Source: Schmidtea polychroa (lineage: Eukaryota). From it: 60,000 nucleotides of DNA. Position numbers and translations under genes: made by a program. Location: assembly GCA_044892525.1 (NCBI GenBank), contig CM097885.1:6822001-6882000 (forward strand). Reading direction: 5' to 3'. The notes under the pieces were generated by a model that searched no databases, had not been told where the DNA came from, and saw only the letters and a list, made by a program, of their open reading frames with translations. Position 1 is the stretch's first letter, and each line of letters starts with the position of its first letter. Below are positions 6,011 to 59,400 of the stretch, piece by piece.

Positions 6011-6088
<78 letters not shown>

Positions 6089-6089: not shown

Positions 6090-6159
6090 AAAAACTTTTC
6101 AAATAATTTCGCACATTTAATTTAAAAATGGAAATAGATTTTATTTATCTAATTTTTAG

Positions 6160-23600: not shown

Positions 23601-24796
23601 TCCTTACTGTTGGATGCGCATGAATGAATCTCGTGTTTTTCTTTAATTGATCTCTTAGATTCTGGTGGTTATTAATTATGGTTTGTTGGATTGTTTACTT
23701 AACTTATAAATGACATTTGGGCACATTTCATTTTGTAGTCAAAATCTTTTTAAAAATTTGCTATTAAAAAATTCTTATCAAAAACATTTTCAATAACAAT
23801 ATTGATTTAAATAATTTTCTTGGATTTAAAAAAAAATATTAATGTTATTTTTTTACAAAATTTTGGAAATTAAGTTACAAATAAATTCGAAAAACACTGA
23901 AAAATTAACATTAAAAAACCAATATTTATAAAATATCTGTTTATCTATAAAAACATTTTAAATATAGAAATTTCAAAATTAAGAGGAAATAACTATTATT
24001 TATAATTATGATTTATGAATGTTTTAATAATTTATTTATTTTCACAAATATTGATTTGAAACATTCGAGTCTGACAAAATATTTCGACTTTTAACATTTT
24101 CACATATTAGGTTTATTGATTTATTTATTTTACTCTATTCTAACTTTTCGATCATTGAAATATCCTTATCCAATTGTGGATCATTCCCAATATTTATAAC
24201 CATAACGAGATCATTAGATCAAAGGCTAAAACCCCACAATTCCTGAATACATTATTAACCTGCTTAGCGTTACAGAGTAAAATTTTATTCATATCATTTT
24301 TTTTAAAAATTGAATGAAAATTTTTTGTTATTTTGTTAAAAAGTATTTGAATTAAAAATATTGATTTTTTGTTAAATTTCTATTTTTGCTCTGATGATTT
24401 TGAATTTCTTTCTAATCTGTTCAAATAAATTCTAAATTTAGATAAAATTTTTTAAATTTTTATGAAAAATATTAATTTTTATATTTTGACCTATTTTTAA
24501 TTTTGATTTTCTCTTTAAAAAAGTTATTTAAATTTCCATCAAAATTTTACTTTTTGTTATCAAATTTTAATTTAAATAATTTTGTAAGATTTAAAATAAA
24601 AAAACAATGAAAATTAACATTAATAAAATTTCGAATTACACTCAAAGCTAAAATACAATATTTATAAATTGTTTGTTTATCTACATTAAAATACAAATTA
24701 TAAATATTGAAATTGTAAACGTCAGAAATAATTAATATAATAAGTATAATTTGTGAAAATTGTAAAATGTTGAAAATTTTGTTTATTTTAGATAAA

Positions 24797-35244: not shown

Positions 35245-36249
35245 TGGAAAAAAATAATAATTTTATTGACTTGGAAAATATTTGGGAAAAGTTCTTGGAA
35301 AATTTTGGGACTTATTTGAGTCACTTAGATATATCTTCACTACTCCATTTCTTGAGACTTGGAAAATTCTCTGATTTGCACCTGCGCAAATATTATCGCT
35401 ATAAAAATGTATTTTTGCAAACCTTTTAATAAATATATTTCAAAATCTCATTAAGTGAAACATGAAAGAACCCAAGGTTCAAAAAATAAAATGTGGTGGG
35501 ATCTACAACAAGTGAGATAATAATCATTATACATTTCCAAATCATTCTTTTCTTGTATAATTTCAACCAAATCATTTCAATGAGGAAATGTTGTTGTTAA
35601 ATCAGACAAAATACATTTTTTGTTATCATAGTTTTCCAAAGAAGATTTTTATGATTTTTGTAATAACATCTCATGATTTTTAGAATTTAAATTATAAATA
35701 ATATCCATACTTTTTTCAGAAAATGGTTTGAAGCAATCTAAATAATTTTGATGAGTTATTTTTTATTTTATGTTTTACACATTTTTTATTCCTTTATTTT
35801 TATTTTCTTCGCCTTAAAAACATTTGAGAGAATATTGTTTAGCTCGGTCTACGACCTCATCAACAGAGATGACTTTATTGGTAAATTTCCCTACTACTTT
35901 TCAAAAAAAAATATTTTTAAAATTAATAAAAATTTAAAGTGTAAAAAACAACAGCTTAGATAGCACAGTGGGAATCTATTTAACAAACATCAATAATAAA
36001 CATGGTTCAAATTCCAAGTAAAACTATTTTTATAAACAAATTTCAATGTTTCTGTTTTAATATAACAACTATTTTATAATTTGTTTTACTATTATAAAAT
36101 AAATATTTTGTGTATTTTGTGTGTATTAGTATTTCTTTTAATTAACTTACAAAATAAATATGAAAAAATAATTTTTTGAACCGAGTGTGGTGGCGAAACT
36201 GGAGACATCGCCACAACTCTTTCCAACACACCTGGGATTGATCCCTGAA

Positions 36250-36620
36250 TTGTTTGAATTTCTTTCAAACAGTTTTGATTCAAAATTTTCTAAACGTTGA
36301 AATAACTTGATTTATGCTATTCACAACGATCTGTTGGCAAAGTATTTGAGGATTTTCTTTCAAGCATTCTTAAAATGGTTCCCTCGGATTCATGTGTTCA
36401 AACGGATAGTGGCCTATCACAGTCAATTAAATTTTGCTAAAACTTCCCAGTATCATGTAAGTGTTGACGGACTTTGTTAAATATTCTTCTTCTTTATATC
36501 TGCGATTTTGTAAAGCTTCTTCATATAATTATCTTACTTAACCCTTAATAACCTAGAGTTTCAATTTTGATACCAATCTTTTAAACCGAATGTTCACATT
36601 ACTATTAGTTTTTTTTATAG
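36250..36620 (-). pseudogene. Possible remnant of a Tc1/mariner-related (DUF4817-like HTH) transposase N-terminus
   Basis: Minus-strand RRIFNKVRQHLHDTGKF...DCDRPLSV...ILRMLEENP; recognised from memory only. Confidence 0.4.
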
Positions 36621-41005: not shown

Positions 41006-44000
41006 TGTTCTCAATTTCGCTCATTTTTGTTCAAAACATTCAGGTGAGTTGTTATCTGGAAAGTTTCTTTGAGCTCAGTTTTGTTAAAACACTCACGGTA
41101 TTTTTGAGGGACGTGACACTGGAAATAAATTAACAATAGGTGGTCTTGCATACATGTTGTTGGTTTGAACTGTTGATTTATTTTAGAAATATGTATATTA
41201 AAAACATTTAAGGTATCATTCAGTAAAATAATATAGTATTTTTGAGTATTTTTAGTTGATTTATAAATAACAGTATTTTGATATATCAATAAAGACCATA
41301 TACTCCTAGTTTATCCGACAAAATATTCTGTCCCCCTATGGGTATTGCTAGCAAGGGTACTGGTCACACTCAACAAGTCGCAAGGGTATATTAATCATTT
41401 AGAAATTCTTAGGTAAGATAATCAGAAATTTGTGAATATTTTAAATGTAACTTTACACTTATGTCGAGCGACTAATTTATTGGTTAACCTTTTAGACATT
41501 TAAAGCAAAAGGTAATTTATTCATCTAATGTTCGTTACAATAGTTAATAATATGAGAAAAACATGGTCATTATTCATTGATAATTTTAAATTCTTTATCA
41601 TTTAGAGTAAATTTGTTTGAGGCAAAAATAATTAAAGGAGTCATAATAGAAATATGGTTATCATTTATCCAATTAAGGGGCTAATTAGTTAGAAATATAT
41701 ATTATAAAGTAACAATTATTTTCTAATTTAATTAGATGATCATTAGACGTAATATATCTTTGCGAGAAATTTAAGATGTTTGAGTAACCAAAACATGGAT
41801 ATTTTGTGCGATAAATTTATGAATATTGGTTAATTTTGTTATTTTTAGTCATTTAAAATAATATTTAGCAAAGGTAATTTAGCAAAATATCATTGAAAGA
41901 TTTATCCATCCGATAATAATATTCCTTCAATAGATTTTACCTTTAATATTCAACCGATTTAATTTCTAGAAATCTAATTAAAATCATAAAATTCCTTCAA
42001 TAAAGTTAAATTTTCTTTAGCCGTTGTCGATTTCCAACTTTTAAGTCAATATTTCTCAAGTTTTGTCACTGATGTCCCCACAATGAATAAAATAACTTCT
42101 TAAGTAAATAATTTAAAGCAATAACCTTTGATATCAATCCCAATTAATTCTAAAGATTTCAAATATTTCATTGTGAAAACCAAGTAAATTGATCATTAAC
42201 CCTAAACGACTTAATAAAACAATGGATAATTAATAAAAAACTGGTTCTAAAACATAAATCTAAATTACTGTGCAATAACATTCATCACAACCTAATAAAC
42301 CTTTAAAACGATATAATTTCACAGGAACTATTATTAATTCATAGCTAAATACTGACTATTTCCCTTTAAAATTTTACCAATAAGAACATTGTCGATTTAA
42401 ATAGAGATTTCAAACATTTCCACCTTAACCGATCCCTCACCAAATATTTCTATCATTTTAAACACCCCCTTAAAAATCATATATTACCATCTTAACCAAC
42501 CGACTTTAATATATCAGACCTTTAATATATCAATTCTCTTAAAATCCATAGAAAATTCTTCAAAATATGAATTTTATTTAATTGTTACAGACATCCGTCC
42601 ATTGAAATAATTTAGTATCTAAATTCAAAGAGTCCACTAAAAGATCAAAATTCACTAAAATCAATATTTAACCACATGTATCATCAAATACCTAACTAGA
42701 GATGAAATATATTGATTGATCATAATTCTTCATCGATCCAGCTAATTATATAGCAATTATAACGTGATATATCTTTCAAAATCACAAATTTCAGTATATT
42801 TTACAATAATTTTTACAAAAATTAAATAATAATCACTTGATTATTGTAAAAACTCTAATTATTAACCTAACTGTCATTAAAAATAATTTTTATTTAAAAG
42901 TAAATTTAAAAACAAGTCAATAAAATATAGCAAATTATCAAGAAATTAATTAAATTTGTCTTAGAATTAACACTAAAACGTTAAATTTCAAAATATTCTT
43001 TCAATTATTCACAAAAAGGTTAGTAATAATGTTAGTAAAATCCCGCTAACTCTAAAAATTACCAATGAATTTAATGCTAAATAATAACCAAAAATTTGCC
43101 TAAATAAAATCATTAAAACACACCAGTACCCTTACGAGCAGTACCAATTGTGAGCAGTACCCATAGAGGGAGAAAATATCTTGTCGGATAAACTCAGAGT
43201 ATATATAATAAAACGAATTAACAATAACTCCATCAAATTGAATCAGTCAAATTAACACAAATTTTGATAAAAAATCTTATTCTAAAATGTTAAGAAGCGT
43301 AAAGTCGAAAGATAATTTTAATAACACCGAGATAAATTAACAATATTATTCTCAGGTGGTAAGAATCTTCATTAAAGTTAGGAAATTATTTATTAATCTG
43401 TCATAAAATTATAATAAACTTCAAAGGGGTTAAAATAAGTGTTAGAATAATTCATTATTGGATTATGGAAGGTCAATGAAAATATACTGAGAAGTGGCAT
43501 GGATATATATTAATTTTATTTATTTAAAATTATTTCATAAAATTCATAAATTTCATAAAAATTCATAAAAACGTTCACTTTAATAAAAAAATATTTAATA
43601 CAATTTTAAAAGAAATATTTGCCCGGAGAATATAAATGATAATAATTATTGGGAAATCGAGAATCGGCGGCTATAAGTGATGAGGATATATAAAATTATT
43701 TCTATTATATGAGCTACTAAAGAATTAAAATATTTTAATAATGCGATAAACTTTTATTTAATAAAGTATTTAATCCCAAATGATTATTTTATTACATAAG
43801 AAACCGTGAAGGGTATTTGACAGAGTAATTATGATAAATTCATATTTTAAATTTTGATTAAGTCCTTTAATATTAGCAATTATTATTAAATTTACTATTT
43901 TACACTAAATATTTCATTTCACTTTAATGAAGATTCTTACCACCTGAGAATAATATTGTTAATTTATCTCGGTGTTATTAAAATTATCTTTCGACTTTAC

Positions 44001-46293
44001 GCTTCTTAACATTTTAGAATAAGATTTTTTATCAAAATTTGTGTTAATTTGACTGATTCAATTTGATGGAGTTATTGTTAATTCGTTTTATTATATATAC
44101 TCTGAGTTTATCCGACAAGATATTTTCTCCCTCTATGGGTACTGCTCACAATTGGTACTGCTCGTAAGGGTACTGGTGTGTTTTAATGATTTTATTTAGG
44201 CAAATTTTTGGTTATTATTTAGCATTAAATTCATTGGTAATTTTTAGAGTTAGCGGGATTTTACTAACATTATTACTAACCTTTTTGTGAATAATTGAAA
44301 GAATATTTTGAAATTTAACGTTTTAGTGTTAATTCTAAGACAAATTTAATTAATTTCTTGATAATTTGCTATATTTTATTGACTTGTTTTTAAATTTACT
44401 TTTAAATAAAAATTATTTTTAATGACAGTTAGGTTAATAATTAGAGTTTTTACAATAATCAAGTGATTATTATTTAATTTTTGTAAAAATTATTGTAAAA
44501 TATACTGAAATTTGTGATTTTGAAAGATATATCACGTTATAATTGCTATATAATTAGCTGGATCGATGAAGAATTATGATCAATCAATATATTTCATCTC
44601 TAGTTAGGTATTTGATGATACATGTGGTTAAATATTGATTTTAGTGAATTTTGATCTTTTAGTGGACTCTTTGAATTTAGATACTAAATTATTTCAATGG
44701 AAGGATGTCTGTAACAATTAAATAAAATTCATATTTTGAAGAATTTTCTATGGATTTTAAGAGAATTGATATATTAAAGGTCTGATATATTAAAGTCGGT
44801 TGGTTAAGATGGTAATATATGATTTTTAAGGGGGTGTTTAAAATGATAGAAATATTTGGTGAGGGATCGGTTAAGGTGGAAATGTTTGAAATCTCTATTT
44901 AAATCGACAATGTTCTTATTGGTAAAATTTTAAAGGGAAATAGTCAGTATTTAGCTATGAATTAATAATAGTTCCTGTGAAATTATATCGTTTTAAAGGT
45001 TTATTAGGTTGTGATGAATGTTATTGCACAGTAATTTAGATTTATGTTTTAGAACCAGTTTTTTATTAATTATCCATTGTTTTATTAAGTCGTTTAGGGT
45101 TAATGATCAATTTACTTGGTTTTCACAATGAAATATTTGAAATCTTTAGAATTAATTGGGATTGATATCAAAGGTTATTGCTTTAAATTATTTACTTAAG
45201 AAGTTATTTTATTCATTGTGGGGACATCAGTGACAAAACTTGAGAAATATTGACTTAAAAGTTGGAAATCGACAACGGCTAAAGAAAATTTAACTTTATT
45301 GAAGGAATTTTATGATTTTAATTAGATTTCTAGAAATTAAATCGGTTGAATATTAAAGGTAAAATCTATTGAAGGAATATTATTATCGGATGGATAAATC
45401 TTTCAATGATATTTTGCTAAATTACCTTTGCTAAATATTATTTTAAATGACTAAAAATAACAAAATTAACCAATATTCATAAATTTATCGCACAAAATAT
45501 CCATGTTTTGGTTACTCAAACATCTTAAATTTCTCGCAAAGATATATTACGTCTAATGATCATCTAATTAAATTAGAAAATAATTGTTACTTTATAATAT
45601 ATATTTCTAACTAATAAGCCCCTTAATTGGATAAATGATAACCATATTTCTATTATGACTCCTTTAATTATTTTTGCCTCAAACAAATTTACTCTAAATG
45701 ATAAAGAATTTAAAATTATCAATGAATAATGACCATGTTTTTCTCATATTATTAACTATTGTAACGAACATTAGATGAATAAATTACCTTTTGCTTTAAA
45801 TGTCTAAAAAGTTAACCAATAAATTAGTCGCTCGAAATAAGTGTAAAGTTACATTTAAAATATTCACAAATTTCTGATTATCTTACCTAAGAATTTCTAA
45901 ATGATTAATATACCCTTGCGACTTGTTGAGTGTGACCAGTACCCTTGCTAGCAATACCCATAGGGGGACAGAATATTTTGTCGGATAAACTAGGAGTATA
46001 TGGTCTTTATTGATATATCAAAATACTGTTATTTATAAATCAACTAAAAATACTCAAAAATACTATATTATTTTACTGAATGATACCTTAAATGTTTTTA
46101 ATATACATATTTCTAAAATAAATCAACAGTTCAAACCAACAACATGTATGCAAGACCACCCATTGTTAATTTATTTCCAGTGTCACGTCCCTCAAAAATA
46201 CCGTGAGTGTTTTAACAAAACTGAGCTCAAAGAAACTTTCCAGATAACAACTCACCTGAATGTTTTGAACAAAAATGAGCGAAATTGAGAACA
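41006..46293. repeat. Long inverted repeat: arms 41006-43378 and 43921-46293 (2373 bp each), 542-bp spacer
   Basis: Coordinate sum is 87299 at the outer ends, the inner ends and the mirrored ORFs 41011-41289/46010-46288; only a handful of substitutions seen. Confidence 0.95.
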
Positions 46294-46539
46294 GTAGTGA
46301 GGAATCTATGCACCCCAGCACCCCCACCCTCAAAAAAAAACAGCTCTATTGACCCATATTTTCCACATTTATATGCTTTTTTACCCCATATTCTTCACTT
46401 ATTTTAACTTTTAAACTTTGTCCCCTATTGCCATTAACCCTTAATTTCTTCCCTTAAAAGTAAAAAAGTTCGGAATAGATGTATTTATAGATTAGTAATT
46501 CCGAGAAAAGGTAACGGGGTGCATAGATTCCTCACTACT
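46293..46539. mobile_element. 247-bp element with perfect 24-bp TIRs starting AGTAGT (Polinton-like termini)
   Basis: AGTAGTGAGGAATCTATGCACCCC ... GGGGTGCATAGATTCCTCACTACT; no TSD. Confidence 0.75.
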
Positions 46540-46852
46540 TGGTCTTAAGGATTTAATGTTATAAGGATTTAATGTTATAAGAATATCAGATTACCTAATT
46601 CATAATGATCTAGGTCGCCTGATCACCTTAAGGTTTTGAAAGTTTTAAAAATAAAAAATTTTATGAAAATAGTAAAACTGCTTTGAGGGGACAGTGGTAT
46701 TTTTTTTTTTTTTTTTTTTTTTTTTCACTGTCCCCTCAACAGTTTTTTTTGATCCGGATCATTTTTTTTTTATTTATCAACCTCTTTCGTTTATCAAATC
46801 TCTTCCAATATACAAGCTGGCCAGACTCATACATCAGAATCAATCCGATAAT

Positions 46853-47075
46853 AGCAGCACGCCTTATTATTCGCTTCTCGCTCACGAAGTCGATTTCAAC
46901 GGCGTTTTAAGCGTGCTGCTCGAAAGTACAAATGAATTCGAAAGCGAATCCGAAAGAGGTCCGAAAACAACCAAGAAATAAATGTGCACATTATAGAATC
47001 GATCCGGGGGTGTTCGAAAGACAGGTGGCGATAATTACCGGTTCGCCACCATCACCCGTTTCAATATTTTTTTTT
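46853..47075 (+). ncRNA. Candidate structured ncRNA or ssDNA structure of unknown family, ending in a T9 run
   Basis: Stems AGCAGCACGC/GCGTGCTGCT, ATTCG/CGAAT, GGGTG/CACCC, GGTGGCGA/TCGCCACC; repeated CGAAA. Confidence 0.5.
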
Positions 47076-47220
47076 CATATTTATGTTTAAAAAATAATTA
47101 ATTAATAAAAAAATAAAATAAAATAAAATAAATAAAATAAAATATACAAGTACTTTATAAATATAAGATACCCACACTATTATTTTCAAATTTTTAATAT
47201 TATTTTATGTTGAAAAAAAA

Positions 47221-47294
47221 CTAACCACAGTTAGGATTTGAACCGCTATCTATTTGAACCACTGTGCCGGTCTAGCCCACTGCGCCATCAAGGT
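47221..47294 (-). ncRNA. tRNA-like Pol III unit 1
   Basis: A box TGGCGCAGTGG at position 8, B box GGTTCAAATCC, T8 terminator; cloverleaf poorly paired. Confidence 0.65.
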
Positions 47295-47461
47295 TTGAAT
47301 TTTTGTCATTTTTTAGACTATAAATAATCGATTCAAGTTAAAACGTTTTTGATCTTAAATTTCCAAGAGTTGCCGTTGACCAATCACCTTTAAAATTTGT
47401 ACAAGTACTAAATCGAGTATGCTGATCAATATTTTGTTTAAAAAAAAAATTTGAAAAAAAA

Positions 47462-47534
47462 TGACCGAAATGGGATTTGAACCCATTGGTATTGGCAATG
47501 CAGTCGAGTGCTATTACCACTAAGCTATACTCAA
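47462..47534 (-). ncRNA. tRNA-like Pol III unit 2, tRNA-Cys(GCA)-like
   Basis: GTATAGCTTAGTGGTAATAGCACTCGACTGCA...ATGGG-TTCAAAT-CCCAT then T8; D and T arms intact, acceptor and anticodon stems unpaired. Confidence 0.72.
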
Positions 47535-47694
47535 TATGAAATAAGTTGTTAATGTGTGACTATTTATTGATGAAATTAATAATTAATTATTCATTTTCTC
47601 GACAACTACCACTCAGATCCATCTGAAAATTTAAATATATACTAAAATCAGTACGCTGAATCAGATTCCGTTGAAAAAAAAATATCGAAAAAAA

Positions 47695-47769
47695 TTGACC
47701 AAAATCGAAAATTGAACCCGGTACTCCCGGTGATAAAATTGAAGCCTATTCCCACTCCGCTATAATGGC
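47695..47769 (-). ncRNA. tRNA-like Pol III unit 3
   Basis: A box TAGCGGAGTGG at position 8, degenerate B box GGTTCAATTTT, GCCA/TGGT end pairing, T7 terminator. Confidence 0.55.
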
Positions 47770-47825
47770 TTACATAATATATTTAATTAATCCTATTTTG
47801 TGTGTGTAAATTTTAATATATAAAA

Positions 47826-49118
47826 ATGAATAATATAAATCTTAAAATTCAAGAAAAAAATAAATTAAATCTTGATTATAATAAAGAATTTACTCATGAA
47901 ATCAAGAAAAATGATGTACTTAAAATCTCCCCAACATCAGGATCTATTGCAAACTTAAATCGTAGGGGTGATATAGTTTTTCAATCTCTTCAAACATCAA
48001 ACCCTATAGATATTTGTAATGCCAAATTATATTATAAAATCGAATTAGAAATTGAAGCAAACAAAGATATAACCCTAGAAAATAATTTCTTTCCAAATTT
48101 ATTCTCCAACATGAGATTAAAACTAGGATCATCAGAAATTGAAACTGTTTTGCATCCGGGAGTATATTCTACAATGTTAAATTTTATTTTGACTGGTTGT
48201 GATTATAAAAACGAATATGGTGAATTAACAGGTTGGATTCCTGATGTTAATAAAGGGGATTTAGATAAAGATGGTTTAGATGTAAACCATGGTTACCATA
48301 AAAGAGCTGAACTTTATAAATCTAAAAAATTTGAAGGTTATTTTGAATTAAAACACTTGTTTGGATTCCTTCAAAACTATAATCGTATACTTCATAATGT
48401 TTTTATAGAATTCATCTGTAATAGAGTAGAAGGTGATAAAAGATTGTTCTATGGAGCTGTAGATACAAAAGCTAAATTAAAATTATCAACACTTGAATTA
48501 CATATACCTGAATGGACATTAAACCCACATTCTGAGATTAAACTCCTTGAAAGATTAAATTCCAACAAGTCTATAAATGTAAATTATTTAAATAGAATCT
48601 GTAGTGAATTTAGTATGACAGAGGGTTCAACATATTCTATAAAGGTAGCAAATTTAGCATACCGACCAAGATATATCTTGATTGGATTCAAAGAAGTAGA
48701 TTCATCTTTCCAAAAAAATAACAACTTGTTTATTCAAAAGATTGGAGTTGATAATTTAAAAACAATCCAAATTCAATTAAATAGTTCTTATTATCCAATA
48801 AATAGAATGGAATTTAATATTGAAAATAATGAAAACATATTCCCATATCTAAATTATATTGAAACATGTTATGATTTCAAAGTTGAACCGCAATTAAGTT
48901 TAGAAGATTTCAAAAATTTATATTCTATATTTTGTATAAATGTTTCAGACCAAGATGATCGCCTAGCCATAAATAATGTTGATGTTACACTTCATGTAAC
49001 AAAGGATTCTAATTTTAAAGCTAAAGTATATACATTAATATTAGAAGAAAAGAAAATAGAAATGAAATTATATGGTGGAAAGATTTCAATAATCGAAAAT
49101 GTTAGGGGAGATTCTTGA
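47826..49118 (+). CDS. Polinton major capsid protein (double jelly-roll)
   Basis: 430 aa; ITLENNFFPNLFSNMRLKLGSSEIE, RPRYILIGF and LNSSYYP motifs; genomic context. Confidence 0.85.
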   Translation: MNNINLKIQEKNKLNLDYNKEFTHEIKKNDVLKISPTSGSIANLNRRGDIVFQSLQTSNPIDICNAKLYYKIELEIEANKDITLENNFFPNLFSNMRLKLGSSEIETVLHPGVYSTMLNFILTGCDYKNEYGELTGWIPDVNKGDLDKDGLDVNHGYHKRAELYKSKKFEGYFELKHLFGFLQNYNRILHNVFIEFICNRVEGDKRLFYGAVDTKAKLKLSTLELHIPEWTLNPHSEIKLLERLNSNKSINVNYLNRICSEFSMTEGSTYSIKVANLAYRPRYILIGFKEVDSSFQKNNNLFIQKIGVDNLKTIQIQLNSSYYPINRMEFNIENNENIFPYLNYIETCYDFKVEPQLSLEDFKNLYSIFCINVSDQDDRLAINNVDVTLHVTKDSNFKAKVYTLILEEKKIEMKLYGGKISIIENVRGDS

Positions 49119-49147
49119 TTTAATCCCTGATATTTTAACATTTTAAA

Positions 49148-50533
49148 ATGTCTTTAAATAAATATTGGAGATGTGAAACTTGTAATTGTCAAGTTACAAG
49201 ACATCATAAAGCAAGCCATCTTAAAACTAAAAAACATACAGGAGGCGATTTGCAATCTTCAAAAACAACATCTTCAATATTAAAACCTTTTACTACAGAA
49301 AAATATCCAGGTGAAAGACATTTATTTAAACACAACTATACTGGACCAGGAACAAGATTAGATATTAGATTAGATGAAAATAATAATCCCAAACAAGGAG
49401 AAGAACCAATAAATAGAATTGATCAAGCAGCTTTAAAACATGACATTGCATACAATTCAACAAATCTTAGAGATAGACATGTTGCAGATGTGAATTTAAT
49501 ACATGATTTAAATAGTATCCAAAATCCATCAACCCAAGAAAAGATTCAAAGAGCTCTAGTTAAATTAGCAATGAAAGGTAAGATTTTCATAGGCTTAGGA
49601 CACAGTCCGATCACCATGGGTGCAAGACTTCCTAGGAAAGCAAAAGATGTTGCTTATAAAAAGATTATCGAACAAGCAGACATTGAAAGATCCCTCGAGA
49701 GTACAGCCAAGACTAGTTTACAAACCCCAACAGAATCAGAAATAAAATATGCAAAGGAATTACACCATGAATTTAGAAAAAATAAAAAATATTTAAAAGT
49801 TCAAGTACATGAAAAAGATCAAACATGGTCTGCAGATTTAGTCTTTATGCCCAAATCATCAGACCCTGAAAAATATAAAATAATTTTAACTGTAATAGAT
49901 TTATATACAAGATTTGCTTTTGCAAGATGTTTAGAAAATAAAACAGGATATTCTATTACAGAAGCATTTGAAAATATATTTGAAGAAAATCAAAGAATCC
50001 CAAAATATTTATGGTGTGATAAAGGAACAGAATTTTATAACAAAGTTTTTACAAAGTTTTTAAATGAAAATGATATTAAATTATATTCAACAGAAAACGA
50101 AGGAAAAGCAGTCGTAGTTGAAAGATTAAATAGAACATTAAAAAATAAAATGTGGAAATATTTTACTGCTATTGGAAAACAAAAATGGAACAATGAATTG
50201 TTACAAAAGATTGTAAATGAATATAATAATGATGTACATAGTTCTATAAAATTAACACCTTTAAATGCTTCCACGAAGCCTGAAACCATTAAAGTGGTAA
50301 ATATTGAAAATGATGTTATTGAAAAACCAAAGTTTAAAATTGGTGACCGAGTAAGAATATTTAAATATAAAAATAAATTTGAAAAAGGATTCACAGCAAA
50401 ATGGACAAATGAAATTTTTATTATAAATAAAATACATTATACAACTCCAATAACATATACCATCTTTGATTTAAATAATGAAAAAATATTAGGTAGATTT
50501 TATAATAATGAGTTACAGAAAACAGATTTTTAA
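49148..50533 (+). CDS. Fusion protein: C2H2 Zn finger, parvovirus-type PLA2, retroviral-like integrase
   Basis: CETC..H..TKKH; HNYTGPGT...DQAALKHDIAY; integrase D-D-E in WSADLV, WCDKGTEF, VVERLNRTLK; C-terminal KFKIGDRVRI. Confidence 0.93.
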   Translation: MSLNKYWRCETCNCQVTRHHKASHLKTKKHTGGDLQSSKTTSSILKPFTTEKYPGERHLFKHNYTGPGTRLDIRLDENNNPKQGEEPINRIDQAALKHDIAYNSTNLRDRHVADVNLIHDLNSIQNPSTQEKIQRALVKLAMKGKIFIGLGHSPITMGARLPRKAKDVAYKKIIEQADIERSLESTAKTSLQTPTESEIKYAKELHHEFRKNKKYLKVQVHEKDQTWSADLVFMPKSSDPEKYKIILTVIDLYTRFAFARCLENKTGYSITEAFENIFEENQRIPKYLWCDKGTEFYNKVFTKFLNENDIKLYSTENEGKAVVVERLNRTLKNKMWKYFTAIGKQKWNNELLQKIVNEYNNDVHSSIKLTPLNASTKPETIKVVNIENDVIEKPKFKIGDRVRIFKYKNKFEKGFTAKWTNEIFIINKIHYTTPITYTIFDLNNEKILGRFYNNELQKTDF

Positions 50534-50544
50534 GTCGACAAGCC

Positions 50545-51336
50545 CTAAAACAAACTTTTCCATATTTCAGCTTCTTCTCTATCCAAATAAATATAATTAT
50601 ATTTTTCTTTCCAATGATTATCAACAAACATATCAAACATATTCTTATCAGGTTCAACATTTGAAAATAAATCATTATAAATCATATTCTTATCACGGCG
50701 ATCTAATTTAAAAAATATAAAACAATTGGAATTATTTCTTATTGAATTTTTATCTAAAGCATAATATGTTTGAGATATATAAATAACATTACAATTATTA
50801 TGTCGACCTCGTGTAAAGTAACTCTTTTGAATCTCTTGATTTTTCATATTAACAACATCATCAAATATAACTAGATTCTTTTTATCTTTAGGAAGTAAAT
50901 CACAATGTAAAACATCTTCAGGTTTATTAGAGAATAAAACTTGAATTGCCTCCTGCCCTTCTTCACAAATATAATCATTTTTATTACTAATATCTGATTC
51001 TAAAATCTTTTCCTTATACCAATCAACCATATCACAAGGTTGAAAAACTTCTTCAGGACACCTATGTTGATTTTTAAAAATATCAATTATTGCTTTTTTA
51101 GTTAATTTATTTTCAAATCCACATTTCAAAAGTTGTAATTCTGGTTGATTTATGGTTGTAGAATAAAAGATTAAATTATTATAATCTAAAAAATCATCTT
51201 CAAGTAACATTCTCAAAACAAGTACATTCTTTCCACATCCAGAAGAACCAACAATTAATAATCTAAAATTATCAGGAAATACTTTATTATTAAATTTACT
51301 CTTATGTCTATTTAAAATTGGTTTCCAAGTATCCAT
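50545..51336 (-). CDS. A32/FtsK-like DNA packaging ATPase
   Basis: Walker A GSSGCGKN, Walker B LVIFDD, RGRH, ISQTY, IRNN. Confidence 0.92.
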   Translation of the reverse strand: MDTWKPILNRHKSKFNNKVFPDNFRLLIVGSSGCGKNVLVLRMLLEDDFLDYNNLIFYSTTINQPELQLLKCGFENKLTKKAIIDIFKNQHRCPEEVFQPCDMVDWYKEKILESDISNKNDYICEEGQEAIQVLFSNKPEDVLHCDLLPKDKKNLVIFDDVVNMKNQEIQKSYFTRGRHNNCNVIYISQTYYALDKNSIRNNSNCFIFFKLDRRDKNMIYNDLFSNVEPDKNMFDMFVDNHWKEKYNYIYLDREEAEIWKSLF

Positions 51337-51352
51337 TTTTATTTATTATAAA

Positions 51353-51946
51353 ATGACAACTGAAGAATCTTTGCAAGAATTAATAAATTCAAATAAAAAT
51401 AAATCAGTAGTAATTGATGGTAAAAAATATTTTATTGGAAAACATGTAAAAGAACAAGTTAGAGCGAAGCTCCACGAAGCTAAAGAAGGTGGCATTCTTC
51501 CATTAGCTGCTTTAATACCTGCAATCATTGCTGGTTTATCAGGTGCTGCTGGAATAGCTGGAGGAATTGCAACTACAGTTCAAAAAGCTAAAGAATCTCA
51601 AAAGACAGACCTAGAAAAAGAAAAACTACAAACTGAAATCGATTCAATGAAGAAGGTAGGGCAAGCTAAAGGGGGAGTGTCCGTTGGAAAGGGTCTCTAT
51701 CTTAATCCATATGAGGGGAGTCGGCAAAAGTCTCAGGGCAAAGGTCTCTATCTTGATCCTTATAAAGGTAGAGGTTTAAATGATTTTTTAAAAAATCAAA
51801 TTTCTACATCTGAATCTTTATCTTTAAAAGATAAAGAAGATTTAAAAAAAATATGTAAATCTTTAAAGAATGGATGTCTTTGTAAAACTAAAAATGGCAA
51901 AGGTTTATACTTGAAGCCCTTTCCAACGGATCCTTTACCAAAATGA
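51353..51946 (+). CDS. Putative virion core protein with an adenovirus pX(Mu)-like segment
   Basis: GGILPLAALIPAIIAGLSGAAGIAGGIA; three GKGLYLxP(Y/F) repeats. Confidence 0.65.
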   Translation: MTTEESLQELINSNKNKSVVIDGKKYFIGKHVKEQVRAKLHEAKEGGILPLAALIPAIIAGLSGAAGIAGGIATTVQKAKESQKTDLEKEKLQTEIDSMKKVGQAKGGVSVGKGLYLNPYEGSRQKSQGKGLYLDPYKGRGLNDFLKNQISTSESLSLKDKEDLKKICKSLKNGCLCKTKNGKGLYLKPFPTDPLPK

Positions 51947-51968
51947 TACCATTTTTAATACCATAAAA

Positions 51969-52838
51969 ATGGTATATGAAGAAAGATTAGCACTTTTAAA
52001 AAAATTACAATCAGAACAAGATAAATATAATAAAAAAGATACAAGTCAACATGCTGAATCTATAATATTAAATGAGGTAATAACACAACAACAGGGGCCA
52101 ACAATTAAAGCTATAAAAGGATTAAATGAGCAAGCAAAATTTAAAGAGTTAGAAGATGGAGGAAGTCCCCATGAACAAAAAATAAAAAAACTAGAGTGGA
52201 AGGAAGAATCCAGTGAAAGTCATTCTGAAAGAAATCAAAGAAAACGCAGAAGAATTTCTAATGCGGAAGAAGAAGAAGAAATGTTTTTAAAAACAAAACC
52301 TCTTAAAGTTGATCCTAAAATTAGAGATGATTTACCTCCTTCAATTAGACCCACATTTAATACTAATACTGAAGGATATCAAATAATAACAATTAATAAA
52401 CAAAACTTTACTTTATATTCAAATTCAGAAAATAAATCACGTATTCATTCACAAAATGTTTATAATAATGAATATTTAGACTTTGAATTTACAGATGATT
52501 TTTATAAATTACTTTGTGGATATTCTTCAGATGATCTTGAAGAAATTAAAAAATATTTAAATTTAATAAGATTAATAAGAGCTGGTTCTAAAGCAAAATA
52601 TATTCAAGATTTAAAGAATTATTTAGATAAAAATGAAAAGGGTTATGTTGTTACAGAGGGAGAGGGATTAATTAGTGAAGGAAATCCCATCAATCTTTTT
52701 ATTGAATTAAGAAAACTATTAGCTGCAAGGAAAGCAGGACATAATAATTTAGATTCTGATATTTTAAAGATTTCTAAAGATTTGTTAAAACAAGGAATAA
52801 TTTCAAAAGATAAATTTAATAAGTATACGAAGTTATAA
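51969..52838 (+). CDS. Conserved Polinton protein of unknown function
   Basis: 289-aa ORF; GEGL..NPINLFIELRKLLAARKAGHNN...LLKQGII C-terminal motif; basic NLS-like RKRRR. Confidence 0.7.
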   Translation: MVYEERLALLKKLQSEQDKYNKKDTSQHAESIILNEVITQQQGPTIKAIKGLNEQAKFKELEDGGSPHEQKIKKLEWKEESSESHSERNQRKRRRISNAEEEEEMFLKTKPLKVDPKIRDDLPPSIRPTFNTNTEGYQIITINKQNFTLYSNSENKSRIHSQNVYNNEYLDFEFTDDFYKLLCGYSSDDLEEIKKYLNLIRLIRAGSKAKYIQDLKNYLDKNEKGYVVTEGEGLISEGNPINLFIELRKLLAARKAGHNNLDSDILKISKDLLKQGIISKDKFNKYTKL

Positions 52839-52890
52839 ATACGAAGTTATAAAATACGTAGTTTTAAAATACGAAGTTTTAAAATACAAA

Positions 52891-53358
52891 ATGACTCCTT
52901 CAATCGAATACCCCTCTATATTAGATTTTTTAAAAACATTTGGAATAAATGCAAAAACAAATTTTGATTTAAAAGATTATGCAAATTATTTAAATTTAAA
53001 AATTAAAATATTAATGAATGATGAATTATCAAGTCTGGAGAGTCCCCTGAATATAATAATCAATTATCAAAATTCAAATGAAAAAGGATCTCATTGGGTT
53101 TGTATATATAAGAAATCTATCTACTTTGATTCTTTTGGGATTAAACCTACTAAAGAAGTTGAAGATTATCTCTTGAGGGGTTCTCCGATTGATTCCCCAA
53201 ATGGTTATACTTTTAACTCTTTACAAGTTCAACCTTTGAATACTAAAATATGTGGTATTTTAAGTTTATATGTTTTGTATAGATTGAATATGGGGCATAC
53301 GCAGGATTTTGAATCTATAATTCAAGAAATTTATAATGATCTAGAATCTCTACTATAA
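52891..53358 (+). CDS. Adenain-like cysteine maturation protease
   Basis: GSHWVC, YFDSFG, QVQ..CG give the H-D-Q-C catalytic order. Confidence 0.92.
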   Translation: MTPSIEYPSILDFLKTFGINAKTNFDLKDYANYLNLKIKILMNDELSSLESPLNIIINYQNSNEKGSHWVCIYKKSIYFDSFGIKPTKEVEDYLLRGSPIDSPNGYTFNSLQVQPLNTKICGILSLYVLYRLNMGHTQDFESIIQEIYNDLESLL

Positions 53359-53406
53359 GGATTTTTACTATAAGGATTTTTACTATATGAATTTACTACT
53401 AAAGAA

Positions 53407-54171
53407 ATGGAGCTTCACAACCCTCCGGAAGATAATTTAAAAAAAATGGTAAACATAATGTCAGATAAATATTCAAGAACTTTATCTATAAATTCAAAAG
53501 AATCAGACTTTACTATAAACTTTCAAGATTCAATTAAATTAGATCAAAATTTAAATTATGAATTGGGGCTATTATGGTTTTGTGCTTATAATACTATTTT
53601 TAATATAACTAAAGATAATAATAAATTTACTATTCAAACTCGTGATGGGCATAAACCAGAAATTATAACAATAGAACCTGGGGCATATGAGATAAAAGAT
53701 TTAAATGATATACTTTCTAAAAAAACAAATGAAGGAATTAAAATTAAAATGGATATACCAACTTCAAAATGTGTAATGACTTTGAAGAATATAAAAATTA
53801 GTTTTTTAGATAATTGTTTCTTTCACACAGTTTTAGGATTTAAACCTATGGATATAACAATAAAAGAAGATAAAATAATAACATCAGAACATATTATAAA
53901 AATAATAAATACAAACACAATAAATATTCATTGCGATTGTATAACAGGTTCTTATAATAATGGTAAACAAACAAATGTTTTATATTCCTTTCCCTCAAAC
54001 ACAGTTCCTATGGGATATAAAATAGTTGAAAGAATGAATCCTCCAAATTATTTACCTTTATGTAGAAAATATATAATGGATATTAATTTTAAAATTCTTA
54101 ATCAAGAAGGAGAATTGATTGATTTTAATGGAGAAGAGATTTCAATGTATTTACATTTGAAACAGGTTTAA
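53407..54171 (+). CDS. Minor capsid protein (penton, single jelly-roll)
   Basis: IKLD..YELGL, IEPGAYEI, INIHCDCI..SY.NG...VLYSF, G.LIDFNGE motifs. Confidence 0.85.
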   Translation: MELHNPPEDNLKKMVNIMSDKYSRTLSINSKESDFTINFQDSIKLDQNLNYELGLLWFCAYNTIFNITKDNNKFTIQTRDGHKPEIITIEPGAYEIKDLNDILSKKTNEGIKIKMDIPTSKCVMTLKNIKISFLDNCFFHTVLGFKPMDITIKEDKIITSEHIIKIINTNTINIHCDCITGSYNNGKQTNVLYSFPSNTVPMGYKIVERMNPPNYLPLCRKYIMDINFKILNQEGELIDFNGEEISMYLHLKQV

Positions 54172-54197
54172 CGAAGTCCATTTTAAATTATTAATAA

Positions 54198-55208
54198 ATG
54201 AGTTCTTATATTCCATGTAATAGAGGTGGTGGAACAATAAAAACAGGGTTTAATACAGAAGAAATATTAACTTTAACAGAAAATAAATATATTAATGAAA
54301 GAGGTGATTCAATGAAGGGTGATTTAATTTTAAATGGACACAAGATAAAAGAATTATCTTTTCCAACTGATGAAGCTGATGCAGTTAATAAGAAATATGT
54401 AGATGGTGTTAAAAAATATACTGATTTAACAACAACAAGAATTGAAAGTTCATTAACAACAAAAATTGATTCAATGGAATCAAAGCTTAATAATATCGAA
54501 CAACGATTTAATGATAAATTTGACAAGTTACAAAGTCTGTTAACTGAACAAGTTGTAAAGTTAAATACTGCTATATTAAATTCTAAAGATAAACAAATTA
54601 TGAATACTAAATTTAATGCAATATATAATATAATAAATGAGATGATTACATCATTTAATAAAAGAATTTCAAATTTAGAGTCTCATGGAACACACATTAA
54701 CACCACACATAGTATTAGAAAAAGAGCTGCTGAATTAGAACAGAATAAAACATTATTACCCCATACATATAAACATTTTATAGAACCAAGTTTAATAACA
54801 ACAAACAGTAAAGAATGGGGTGTTTTTATGGTTGTAAAAATTATTGATCCTTATTTCTTTTTGTTTGATGATGATAATGAAAGAATGAAATGGTTTGTGA
54901 AATGTGATTATAATAGTAAGCTTGAAAAGGGTGATGTTATAATGACTAGTTATGATTTACCACACGGAGATTGGTATGTTAATACTCATTCACATGGACT
55001 ACATAAAGTTAAAAGTAAGAATATTCATTTTTCTAGTTCACTTGTACAATATATAGATTTAATATTTTATGAAAAAAAGGTTGATGTTGATGAAGTTCGT
55101 AAAGCATTGAGAGAATTGTATAAAGATATCCTCTCAACAAGAGTTTCTTTTGATATCCGAGTATTGGTGCCAGATGGTGCTCAGAAGAATAAAGTCTTAT
55201 TTTTTTAA
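54198..55208 (+). CDS. Putative fibre/spike-like protein
   Basis: GDSMKGDLILNGHKIKEL..P....DAVNKKYVD fibre-shaft-like motif, long coiled coil, C-terminal globular region. Confidence 0.6.
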   Translation: MSSYIPCNRGGGTIKTGFNTEEILTLTENKYINERGDSMKGDLILNGHKIKELSFPTDEADAVNKKYVDGVKKYTDLTTTRIESSLTTKIDSMESKLNNIEQRFNDKFDKLQSLLTEQVVKLNTAILNSKDKQIMNTKFNAIYNIINEMITSFNKRISNLESHGTHINTTHSIRKRAAELEQNKTLLPHTYKHFIEPSLITTNSKEWGVFMVVKIIDPYFFLFDDDNERMKWFVKCDYNSKLEKGDVIMTSYDLPHGDWYVNTHSHGLHKVKSKNIHFSSSLVQYIDLIFYEKKVDVDEVRKALRELYKDILSTRVSFDIRVLVPDGAQKNKVLFF

Positions 55209-55216
55209 TTATTAAA

Positions 55217-55813
55217 ATGGAAGAAGTAAGAGAAGAAAAATTTTACCCCGAATTGAGATCATCAGGATATTATTCTTCCAAGGCCTCGGCTCCCACAGAA
55301 CTTGAAATTATGAGAGTAAAAGAATTTAAATCAGAAACCTTACATTTACAAGATTTATTAAAGCATTATAAAAAAATTAAAAATAGATGGAATAAAGGGA
55401 ATACAGTTTTAAAAGTTATAGGTTATTCTTTAGGATTTGCATCTGCAATATTAACAGTTATTTTACCCATAACTTTACCAGTTGTTACTCTTGCACCTGT
55501 AATACTTGGAAGTATTTCTGTGGCTGATGGTTTCTTAACTGAAATAGTTTCATTATCTTATACTTCTAAAAAGAAAAGTTTATATAGAGAAGTTTGTTTA
55601 TCAATAGAATTAGGAATCTCTAAATTATTTTTATTTCAATTAAAAGCTTTGGAAGATGGAATCCTGACAGACGAAGAAATAATGAAATCAAATCAAATAA
55701 TACAAGATATAAAGAATGAGGTTATAAGATTAAAAAGGGAGGGCATGGTGGCTAATGTTATAAGTAATAAAAAAACATCTCGAGAAAAATGGTTAAAGAA
55801 TTCTTACTTATAA
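55217..55813 (+). CDS. Putative two-TM membrane protein
   Basis: 198-aa ORF with a hydrophobic hairpin VLKVIGYSLGFASAILTVILPITLPVVTLAPVILGSISV. Confidence 0.7.
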   Translation: MEEVREEKFYPELRSSGYYSSKASAPTELEIMRVKEFKSETLHLQDLLKHYKKIKNRWNKGNTVLKVIGYSLGFASAILTVILPITLPVVTLAPVILGSISVADGFLTEIVSLSYTSKKKSLYREVCLSIELGISKLFLFQLKALEDGILTDEEIMKSNQIIQDIKNEVIRLKREGMVANVISNKKTSREKWLKNSYL

Positions 55814-55907
55814 AATGGGTGTATTTTTAAAAAAGTAGATCAGGTTGCTATAGTTGCTTAAATTAATTGTCGACATTTTATTATTAAAAAATTAAATATC
55901 GTTTGTT

Positions 55908-56425
55908 TCAGTTATGGTTGAAAGCCAACCTATGAATCATTAATTTATGATCTTTAAATTCTTTATCACTTAGACCTTTTATATATTCAGGATCAGTATT
56001 AAAATATTTAAGTTCTAAACATATAGGATTAAAAACTTGAGAATATAAAGGTTTCTCGATTTCTCTCTCGGGATAAATAATTTCAACATTATAAATATCA
56101 AGATCAGTAATCTTTGTATCATATAACTTATTCAACTTTTCTAGATTTTTTATTATAGGGATTAAATTATGAATCTTTTATCATCATAATTTGATAATGA
56201 TACTTTTTGAGATTCTATCAAGTGAACATCATGGTTTTCACTTTTAAGTTGATGTATTTCATCAATTTTATCTTTATGATTTGGATTCAATGTATCTATA
56301 TAATCTTGATGAGAAAGATTCTTTGCCACCACTCTCTGTATTCCTTTACATCTGTTATCCTTTAAATTAGTAATATTTTTTATAATTTCAAAAATGTTAT
56401 TTTCTTGATTTTTAGTTTCCATCAT
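55908..56425 (-). pseudogene. Frameshifted stand-alone paralogue of the pPolB C-terminal region
   Basis: KGIQ..HQDY..HQLKSENH..NYDDKRFI and LELKYFNTDPEYI align with the last ~165 aa of pPolB. Confidence 0.85.
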
Positions 56426-56449
56426 TTTATAGTGTTAAAATTCTAATTC

Positions 56450-59400
56450 TTAGACCAGTCGTAATTGATTTATAATTATTTCTGCAGTAATGCTTTTTAA
56501 CATTAATTTATGTGATTTAAAGTCTTCTGGTGTTAGTCCTTGGATATATTCAGGATCAGTATTAAAATATTTAAGTTCTATAGGTTTTATATTTTGAACT
56601 TGATTATATAAAGGTTTAGGAATTAATATTTCAGGATATTGGATTTCTACTTTAGCAAGTTGAAGGTCTGTAATCTCTAGGTTATAAATTTCATTTATTT
56701 TATCAAGATTTTTTATTATAGGGATTAAATCATTTCCAATAGGTAATGTTGTCTTCAAGTCAGAAAGTATAAATCTTTTATCATCATAATTTGTTATAGC
56801 AATCTTGTTACACTCTTCAAGATATATATTATGTTTCTCTGATTTAAGATGATGGGTTTTAGCAATTTTATTTTTATAATTTATATTTAATGAATCTTTA
56901 TACTCTTGATGTGTGAAGGTTTTTGACACTGATTTTTGAATTCCTTTACTTTTATTTTCTTTATAGCTTTTCGGGTTTTCAGGGAATGAAGGATATTCAA
57001 ATGTGTGATCTATTTCAACAGATCCTTCTCCCTCCCCTATTATAAATTTTATTGTATGCTCTTTCATAATTGGTTTGTCTTTCATTTCAAGAGAATATTG
57101 TTTAGGTCTAATAAACACTCCTCCACTTATTGGAGTATTTGGTTTTTCATCTTTAAAAGTAAATAATTCTCCAGAGTTGTTTATTAATTTATTTAAGGTT
57201 TCGTTTTCACTTATTTCCTTTTTTAAATCTTTACTATGACCTTTTAAAAACATACTATCAGTGTCCATAGCATGCATGGATATTCGATCTCCAAAATGTG
57301 GTACTAGAACATCATAGTAGGCTTCATACATTTGAAGCTTTGAAAGTTCTAAAATTGAAAACCCTATAAAGATTGGTTTATTATAAGTTTTTACAGAGTT
57401 TTTAATCTCTATGGCTATAAGGTTACTAGAGAATATCTCGGCATTTTTAAATGTGGGCTTTCCAATTATCCGGTTGTACCTATTAAGGTCTTTTGATGTA
57501 TTGGTCAAAAGCTCTACACGTGTGTACTTGTCTATATTCTCCATGGTCTTTCCAAAGACCGCATTGTTCAGGAGTTTGTAAATCATATCAAGAAATGCAT
57601 TTCCAGCTCTCTTTGCTGCATTTCTTTTCAAAATATTTCCCTCTATGAATTTTTTCATAAAAGGGGCTTGTCGAAATTTAATAATGGAATGTACTTTTTT
57701 TAAAACCATTCCATGGGAGAGATAAAACTGAAGGAGTCTATAATGACAAAGGTAATCAGTTTTATCGGTCTGATCGCATAAAAGTTTTATACAGGGCGAT
57801 CTATCCTGAGCCATCTGCCAGTCTGAAAGTTCTTCAGTCGAGATCTTTCTTCTTACTGGAGCAAATGGAAAGAATCTTGTCCTGGATTTTATTTCATTGG
57901 GATATTCAAGATCGCATTCTATGACATATCCAAATTGAGAATCTTTTGGTGTTTTTAGAATTTCTTGTATTAATTCCTCAGTGGGCTCTTCCCAGGTGAA
58001 CTTGCCAATTGGAAGGTATTGAGTCATTACTCCCGCATATAAAGCTGTTGCATCTATATACATTATTTCAGAAGGATTAGAAAGACCTTCCATTATTTCC
58101 TTACGATCTTCTGGGTTTGTTATTTCTACATATAGAGCATCAGGATCTTTGAAAAATTTAGGATAAAGAGTTGTAAAATTATTAGCATTTATTTCTCTAT
58201 TCCCTTGTACTGAAGAAATACCTCCTCTAATATTATGTTTATATACATTAAACATATCAAGCTCAACTAATAATTCAATAGTTTTATTTCTTACTGCTAC
58301 ATCTTCATCAGTCCATATGGTATATAATAATATATCCCAAGCTAGAGAGGGAGCGGTTATATAATTATAAGGTTTTAATTCAAAAGCTTTTGAAAATGTC
58401 TCGAAGCAATCAGCTAAGATATAAACATCCAAGGAAAGATACATGTCAGTATATTCTCCAAGGTTTCTACAGTTGAATAGATTCCACATTTTAACTGCAC
58501 GGGAATATTCCTGATCAGAAATCCCTGATTGTGTTAAAACAGAAAAGAAATCTTCTTGGGGTGGGAGTAATTCATTATATTTTTCAAAGGAGTCTATATA
58601 ATCATATGGATAGATTCCTTTTGCTAGACAGGTATTATATTCCTCTAATGGAATATTGTTTTTTAATAACACATGTTCTTTTGTATATTTAAAATCCTCA
58701 GGGTTCATAGTTTTAGCAATCCCATCCAAAGACATCCCTAAGAAATTTAACGAGTCCAAAAACTTAAAGCATCCATATTGAATGCTTTTATATTTTTCTT
58801 TTGTAAGTCCAATAACCTTGAAAGAGTTTTTAGCATTTGCGGCCAGATGCTTAATGAATAGGTGAATATCATAGCCAAAAAGATTGTGAAATATAAATGG
58901 TATGTGTGTTGGTTTTTTACAATTGAGATTACATTTTTTATGGGCTGCTCCTCTGTAATTATTTTCTCTTTTAAAATGATCATGGTCTGCAACCTTTGGC
59001 TCCTCATCCTCAAACTCTTGTTTACACATCCAGCAGTGTGTTGCATTTTTATATTCTTCCTCTTGTTCTTCTGAAAAATTCATAGGAAAGTTGGATTTTA
59101 ATATTATATATAATTCATGTTCTAGATTATTTAAAGTTTTAACAAAATGATCTAGAGTCTCTTTGTCAGAAGTTCCTCTAAATGAATATTCTCTAGATTC
59201 TACAAGTTCTGGATAATTACTTTTAAAAAACATTTTATAAGCAGAGGGTAATTGTTTTGTTAGTTTTACAGTATTAGTTTTTGTTCGTCTTAGTTTTACA
59301 TTTATAGCTTCAAAATCACAATAAACCACTCCCAATGCTTCTAATAGATTGGAATAGTTTTTAAACCTCATATTAGCATTTTTCTTGTGTGGCATTTTTA

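Follow-up and report, generated by a model that had tools for sequence, protein, structure and literature searches.

The question raised by this locus is whether a multi-stem island near the left end of a Polinton in Schmidtea polychroa encodes an RNA and, if so, from which strand, by which polymerase and to what effect. The island lies at 46853-47075 of the window, that is, of the whole 60,000-nt stretch of DNA that was analysed, and a preliminary description had read it as an unnamed plus-strand viral RNA or a single-stranded DNA (ssDNA) origin or packaging structure. Once strand and limits are corrected, the feature holds up: an unnamed structured RNA within a Polinton is upheld, on the minus strand instead. 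A functional RNA is likely encoded there by a longer unit (unit D, 46653-47057), and RNA polymerase III (Pol III) is probably the enzyme that makes it. The best reading is that unit D specifies a new viral Pol III noncoding RNA derived from a tRNA-like cassette, and that the host Pol III makes a folded RNA of 300-400 nt that may act, by analogy with the adenovirus VA RNAs, as a decoy of double-stranded RNA (dsRNA) sensing and RNA interference (probability roughly 0.45).

The carrier is a Polinton/Maverick element, as genes for a double-jelly-roll capsid protein (47826-49118; PF21738), a retroviral-type integrase (rve, 49148-50533; PF00665), an A32 ATPase (50545-51336; PF04665) and a B-family DNA polymerase (56450-59890; PF03175) occur together in one element, where their overall span is 47826-59890 (all Pfam assignments). 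The left terminus, which starts with AGTAGT, occupies 46293-46316 on the plus strand and is supported by a junction contig of sequencing run X12. This contig departs from the window at 46293 and continues as a mirror copy of what lies left of 41006. Such a course matches the expectation for an insertion, and 46293 therefore appears to be the insertion junction inside one arm of a 2373-bp inverted repeat. The repeat is perfect (41006-43378 and 43921-46293), its right arm apparently received the Polinton, and each arm contains a 57-nt internal inverted sub-repeat. The right end of the Polinton lies beyond the 60-kb window, so that for the terminal inverted repeats and the 6-bp target duplication only the left end is visible. 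The 24-nt terminus at 46293-46316 recurs in inverted orientation at 46516-46539, 247 nt into the element, and the Polinton end could thus snap back on itself. The low GC and the likeness of the rRNA fragment at 9828-10542 make a planarian host likely, and such a host fits the Maverick expansion described for Dugesia (10.64898/2025.12.11.693146).

A strict scan of the 60 kb for A/B-box pairs returned three, all on the minus strand and all inside an array of tRNA-like cassettes (47527/47482, 47287/47243 and 47048/47004), and none on the plus strand; at a spacing of 42-48 nt, 0.01 pairs were expected from 100 Markov simulations against the three observed. The last of these pairs heads unit D, which thus has the promoter layout of a type-2 Pol III gene, both boxes being on the same strand and as far apart as in a tRNA gene, with the A box TGGCGAACCGG at 47038-47048 and the B box GATCGATTC at 46996-47004, 44 nt past the A box. 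The preliminary description had taken the island to be convergent with the tRNA-like array, but the two are co-oriented. The other cassettes are likewise on the minus strand. Units C (47213-47295) and B (47454-47535) each have a T8 terminator, with A boxes at 47287 and 47527 and B boxes at 47243 and 47482, respectively; unit A (47688-47770) has its A box at 47762, a single mismatch in the B box and a T7 terminator. The distance between the boxes is 45 nt in unit B and 44 nt in units C and D. Unit B scores 26.7 bits against the Rfam tRNA model, under the gathering score of 29. Runs X12 and X15 contain an alternative form with 232 other letters in place of the 469 nt that hold units A and B (47339-47809), so the tRNA-like array differs among copies.

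The terminators of units A, B and C fall at +68 (T7), +66 (T8) and +67 (T8) after the A box, and at +66 in unit D there stands an interrupted T-run, TTTATTTCTT (46973-46982, minus). Unit D then has no T5 for about 390-399 nt, the first T5 or longer run being at 46658, and a T5-free stretch of 399 nt is common on its own (28% of minus-strand windows). A T4 lies at 46967 within unit D, as an internal T4 also does in unit A, and could cause an early Pol III stop. Judged from the box positions and T-runs, the predicted transcription unit covers 46653-47057 on the minus strand, with a putative start at G47057 and candidate 3' ends at a T4 (46677-46674) or a T6 (46658-46653), and an AAUAAA overlapping an A10 tract is present at 46762-46775 (minus). 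The T9 run at 47067, which the preliminary description had noted after the stems, would not be the terminator of this RNA because it lies upstream of the predicted minus-strand start.

The motifs named in the preliminary description are all present at their given places in 46853-47075, namely the 10-bp stem (AGCAGCACGC at 46853 and GCGTGCTGCT at 46911), TCGCTTC at 46871 with GAAGTCGA at 46886, GTACA at 46926 with TGTGC at 46983, ATTCGAAAGCGAAT at 46936, GGGTG at 47008 with CACCC at 47053, GGTGGCGA at 47024 with TCGCCACC at 47043, five copies of CGAAA, and T9 at 47067. The plus strand of this interval has no folding excess over shuffled sequences (z -0.73, 48 of 200 shuffles as good), and the minus strand has a modest one (z -1.87, 7 of 200). 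Three of the proposed stems are strong in the plus-strand ensemble, with pair probabilities (P) of 0.92 for the 10-bp stem, 0.99 for the GGTGGCGA hairpin and 0.87 for the ATTCG hairpin, and CTTC/GAAG reaches 0.60, but those that had suggested a plus polarity are weak (GTACA/TGTGC 0.35, and TC/GA of the GAAA hairpin 0.23). GGGTG/CACCC, in the register that had been named, reaches 0.10. All three strong stems consist of Watson-Crick pairs and form on both strands (P 0.98, 0.99 and 0.92 on the minus strand). A plus-strand RNA, which a G-U pair and GAAA loops had seemed to favour, is not supported: the GAAA-loop stems reach P 0.23-0.35, and confident G-U pairs are mostly on the minus strand. Among pairs with P > 0.8 in 46674-47057, 12 of 94 are G-U on the minus strand against 1 of 65 on the plus strand. 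The element also outruns 46853-47075, extending to the left by at least 90 nt more, where 46791-46851 is the best-folded piece.

Over 46762-47058, the minus strand folds at -97.2 kcal/mol (z -4.97, 0 of 200 shuffles as good) and the plus strand at -65.8 kcal/mol (z -1.34, 21 of 200), and over 46674-47057 the minus strand reaches z -9.94, inflated by A-runs and the perfect terminal hairpin; these boundaries were picked after the results had been seen, so the z-scores are optimistic. The difference between the strands is largely due to a hairpin, H3, which the preliminary description had missed. Together with a 2-nt 3' linker, H3 spans 46789-46851 on the minus strand (63 nt, the size of a pre-miRNA) and comprises 25 bp, including 9 G-U pairs, with one 2x2 mismatch and a 7-nt loop. 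It is stable on the minus strand only (46791-46851; z -5.15 vs +1.21 on the plus strand), and its G-U pairs would be A-C mismatches on the plus strand. Its strand asymmetry of 21.7 kcal/mol is the largest among 9989 67-nt windows in the 60 kb, the next unrelated value being 15.2.

The predicted structure begins with a 5' domain (47008-47057, minus) in which a GGGUG/CACCC helix surrounds an 8-bp GGUGGCGA/UCGCCACC hairpin (P 0.95 and 0.99, respectively), the 5' end of unit D being predicted to pair with nucleotides 46-50. According to this model, the domain is a refolded tRNA-type head and forms no cloverleaf. Next comes a predicted rod, where the region of the B box is joined to 46760-46754 by a long-range helix (CCGGAUC 47007-47001 / GAUCCGG 46760-46754, P 1.00), and a second long-range helix joins 46970-46965 to 46775-46770 (P 0.92); both helices (minus, region 46754-47007) are predictions with no variants inside, and their P values come from the ensemble of 46674-47057. 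A 10-bp helix (46961-46952 / 46788-46779, minus, P 0.97, region 46779-46961) then closes a three-hairpin multiloop composed of a small 7-bp hairpin (46934-46951, minus, P 0.86), which is the ATTCG-AAAG-CGAAT element described before plus a G-U pair, and of the hairpins H2 (46853-46920, minus) and H3. H2 has a 12-bp helix (P 0.96), consisting of the previously described 10-bp stem and two further pairs, and a less certain interior with a 7x7 internal loop. The unit closes with a terminal hairpin (46674-46746, minus) of 13 perfect bp and 8 bp, with an A26-containing loop and a UUUU end.

UUUCG occurs five times (47015-46921 and 46789-46785, minus) with just one CGAAA partner downstream, so alternative pairing registers are possible. 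At the base of H2 stand an A-U pair, AGCAG/CUGCU and then one unpaired A; this base resembles the acceptor end of an initiator tRNA, with H3 beginning right after that A, at the position where RNase Z would be expected to cut. H2 has no T-arm, and the likeness to an initiator tRNA may be due to chance. An alternative pseudoknot for H2 is contradicted by the variants at 46912/46861. No complementarity of 12 nt or more was found between the unit and the rest of the visible Polinton (A-rich words excluded), which gives no support for a role as a guide.

Variants in the unit were taken from contigs of four of the 24 listed sequencing runs, the matches of one of them (X20) being low-complexity. Among the substitutions listed, of which there are at least six, two make up one compensatory change, two convert G-U to A-U pairs, one is unpaired and one breaks a pair. 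The compensatory change converts the H2 pair G46912-C46861 to A-U, with both letters altered together in single contigs of X12 and X19, and is also found in X15; it is uninformative on strand. The two conversions of G-U to A-U, at 46832 and 46845, are located in H3. The substitution at 47023 is unpaired on the minus strand and breaks a GAAA-loop stem of the plus-strand model, and the one at 46899 breaks a pair of P 0.72 in the uncertain interior of H2. The simulated chance is 0.008 for a compensatory double, 0.002 for the same with no confident pair broken, and 0.14 for the absence of a broken pair alone; alleles are common to three runs, and the variants therefore count as single events. Divergence of the unit (5/255) is not significantly lower than that of the capsid gene (10/207; p 0.11).

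At 35526-36266 lies the relic, now decayed, of an element related to this one. It consists of a PolB piece (35526-35810, minus), a tRNA-like unit on the plus strand with its A box at 35961, and a unit-D-like head with its upstream flank (36165-36266, plus; 70% identity), these parts having the opposite relative orientation compared with the intact element. In the relic head, the letters of the 7-bp stem are all identical (14/14), compared with 5/11 in the loop, the box spacing is kept, and the T-run is interrupted again. The body of the relic has no recognisable relationship to that of unit D.

If unit D acts as a decoy, one of the four tandem tRNA-derived cassettes would have lost its terminator, and Pol III would read through into a structured body to give a 300-400-nt RNA, which is probably abundant. 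The many short, G-U-rich helices of this RNA would occupy dsRNA-binding proteins (RIG-I-like sensors, Dicer, Exportin-5 and ADAR) and, falling short of a long perfect duplex, would bind the sensors without triggering them, and H3 may be diced as well. The decoy step is proposed by analogy. Planarians are described as having RIG-I-like receptors, Dicer and ADAR-gated antiviral responses (PMC8797187), and by the same analogy these could be what the decoy acts on.

VA RNAs are characterised by an A and a B box, a U4 end, PKR inhibition, Dicer feeding and a proposed derivation from tRNA (PMC7589676; PMC4378190), and with a length of about 160 nt they comprise a terminal stem, a central domain with a GGGU-ACCC stem, and an apical stem (PMC7589676). 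Like VA RNAI/II as portrayed in these sources, unit D has internal A and B boxes, a predicted U-run end, high structure and a GGGU/ACCC pairing, and its carrier, like adenovirus, is linear dsDNA that has a B polymerase of the protein-primed type. Unlike the VA RNA described there, unit D is about twice as long or more (300-400 nt predicted), has no 5'-3' terminal stem, and uses GGGU/ACCC, which is not kept in the relic, to close the 5' domain and not the central domain. It also differs in being part of a four-cassette tRNA-like array and in having no match to the VA models of Rfam up to E 10.

The Pol III noncoding RNAs of animal DNA viruses are few, namely VA RNAs, EBERs and TMERs in the account of PMC4378190, and unit D would be a family-less variant of this known class, in a carrier for which the literature search turned up no example. 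It is suggested, more tentatively than the decoy function itself, that animal Polintons produce their own VA-RNA-like, defence-blocking RNAs, and that this locus shows their origin from tandem tRNA-derived Pol III cassettes, one of which is without a terminator and has gained a multi-helix body. If true, the locus would represent a still-living intermediate stage on the route from tRNA that has been proposed for adenovirus VA RNA, and an integrated element would encode an antagonist of host defence. A family-less structured RNA in a Polinton would also indicate active, virus-like management of host RNA defence. The tRNA origin of viral decoy RNAs has so far been a hypothesis, as presented in PMC7589676, and terminated and read-through cassettes side by side would make it directly testable.

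Next after the decoy, the main rival is a microRNA precursor, which is considered unlikely: unit D would be a Pol III primary microRNA like those of TMERs or foamy viruses, from which H3 would be excised as a 63-nt pre-miRNA and diced, with specific targets. Foamy-virus Pol III RNAs take a dumbbell form, and the adjoining hairpins H2 and H3 of unit D share one 10-bp basal helix. H3 with its linker has the size and stability of the pre-miRNA hairpins of foamy virus and bovine leukaemia virus (BLV) type (63 nt, -23.8 kcal/mol, MFEI -1.03), and its first letter is U. Simian and bovine foamy viruses, in their Pol III pri-miRNAs, and BLV, in its pre-miRNAs, likewise have a type-2 layout with short hairpins, and Drosha is described as cutting foamy-virus pri-miRNA hairpins that had been thought too short (PMC4378190). 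Compared with the RNAs in that description, unit D is far longer, adds a 5' domain as well as long-range helices, and has a single miRNA-like hairpin in a DNA-element carrier. The TMERs of murine gammaherpesvirus 68 resemble unit D in their array of tRNA-like Pol III cassettes and in a tRNA-type head followed by hairpins, one being pre-miRNA-sized (PMC8223928; PMC4378190), and TMER pre-miRNAs sit behind the tRNA-like heads (PMC8223928). However, measured against the TMERs in these sources, the head of unit D forms no RNase Z-type cloverleaf (neither ARAGORN at a relaxed threshold nor the Rfam tRNA model made a call), H3 lies about 130 nt behind it inside a multiloop, and three of the four Polinton cassettes stop directly after the head. 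The 7x7 internal loop of H2 also argues against a microRNA precursor, as does the lack of any Rfam miRNA family at gathering score; the mir-15 model gives 13.3 bits vs a gathering score of 57.3 and is regarded as a chance match. A likeness to the seed AGCAGCAC was dismissed as chance too.

A Pol III passenger, either SINE-like or a captured host RNA, which is transcribed but useless to the Polinton, is improbable. The tRNA-derived SINEs have an A/B-box head, an unrelated body and an A-rich tract, and the tRNA-type head, body and AAUAAA/A10 tract give unit D a similar layout; in addition, its conservation does not significantly exceed that of the capsid gene. However, the body of unit D is folded far beyond shuffles, and no target-site duplication is seen at its flanks. 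The SRP and 7SK models do not match either. SRP (7SL) RNA has an Alu domain with a UGU turn and a helix-8 SRP54 motif, and unit D differs in that the UGU after its first hairpin is altered in X12, X19 and the relic, and a helix-8 motif was not seen by eye. The GAUC/GAUC pairing of 7SK is placed in the distal 5' stem-loop SL1 (PMC10083321), unlike that of unit D, which occurs solely in the long-range helix using the B box. Finally, the relic, which is the sole other copy within the 60-kb window, keeps the upstream flank and adjoins a tRNA-like unit and a PolB piece, and this Polinton context indicates that it moved with a Polinton.

An RNA of the BC1/BC200 type is more improbable still. In BC1 and BC200, a head derived from tRNA but refolded, A-rich tracts to which poly(A)-binding protein attaches, and a stem-loop at the 3' end together tune translation. 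Unit D likewise has a refolded head, together with tracts of A10, A8 and A26 and a UUUU-ending terminal stem-loop that the transcript may include. However, these A tracts are not part of the structure with the best support, and H2 and H3 would be left unexplained.

Even less credence is given to a role at the DNA level, in which the locus would fold as ssDNA close to the terminus, to serve as an origin or in packaging, or would recruit TFIIIC through boxes A and B as a chromatin boundary. The position of unit D, 360-760 nt from the Polinton terminus, is consistent with such a role, and the terminal and 5' hairpins fold equally on either strand and as DNA; the terminal hairpin may, to judge from the folding, be a DNA-level feature. 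However, H3 has -23.8 kcal/mol as RNA vs -3.0 kcal/mol as DNA, and the strand asymmetry of the whole unit is lost with DNA energies (-40.5 vs -37.4), which favours RNA over ssDNA, and the origin or packaging structure is thus not supported for the core. A plus-strand RNA with GAAA loops and a T9 end, convergent with the array, can draw on the one G-U pair in GTACA/TGTGC, the five CGAAA copies and the T9 at 47067, but is barely credible given z -0.73, no A/B pair on the plus strand, and GAAA-loop stems at P 0.23-0.35, one of them broken by the 47023 variant.

Unit D has no match in Rfam at gathering level or up to E 10, including the SRP, 7SK, VA RNA and tRNA models, in agreement with the preliminary description, and is not called a tRNA by ARAGORN even at the relaxed threshold. 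Motifs of hammerhead, RNase P/MRP and telomerase RNAs were not seen by eye in the unit. Capsid-anchored scans found nothing in viral contigs and prokaryote genomes; in metagenome contigs they found at least 16 loci, and among the matches listed, whose flanks are mostly short, there was no A/B pair and no similarity to the unit. One Polinton-like metagenome contig (L002; capsid 50% identical) contains a two-copy repeat of about 70 nt at 4520-4700, between PolB and the next ORF, with no A/B-box pair. The stem pattern was found in 7 viral contigs with unrelated interiors, about the chance expectation, the head pattern gave 0 matches, and no distant homologue of the unit D body was found in the viral, prokaryote and metagenome scans. 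Five words from the unit gave only an unrelated match in full-text literature, and words from H3 and H2 gave only a chance mRNA match in the supplements of PMC7722302, which perhaps do not include miRNA sequences. A literature search that ended short of Repbase entries, subscription journals and bioRxiv supplements turned up, among the papers listed, no description of an RNA of this kind from the Polinton of an animal. Polinton-like viruses resemble the present case in having noncoding RNA genes within Polinton-type elements, and the genes set out in PMC12220804 belong to Rfam/ARAGORN classes (tRNAs, group I introns and others), unlike unit D, which is family-less and no working tRNA.

None of the runs on record as RNA contains the stretch. 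In X15, which is RNA only by guess, contig depth at sites in unit D is 1385-8083, compared with 6-14 for unit B and about 299 for the capsid gene, and the corresponding depths in X12 are 29, 13 and 36. The ratio of unit D to the capsid gene is thus about 18x in X15 and 0.8x in X12, which is a lead and no evidence, as contig depth cannot rank genes. That X15 leaves 47023-47164 uncovered, and X19 other parts of the Polinton, carries no weight. The end of an X19 contig was rejected as support for the start site, as 15 unaligned letters extend beyond 47057, and in X15 a further loose end with T8, at 46762, may reflect an allele, an A tail or priming.

Further features were observed in the Polinton and on the host side of the window. 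The integrase ORF (49148-50533) opens with a phospholipase A2-like domain (PF08398, E 4e-9). Direct repeats of 233 and 199 nt with 70-73% identity (55938-56362 / 56501-56962) mark a decayed duplicate of the PolB 3' region directly beyond the polymerase stop codon. Scrambled fragments of eukaryotic small-subunit rRNA lie at 9828-10542, and other host-side fragments (18357-20203, 24767-26292 and 29289-29702) include hAT transposase pieces, a RING and TRAF/MATH gene, and a reverse-transcriptase piece.
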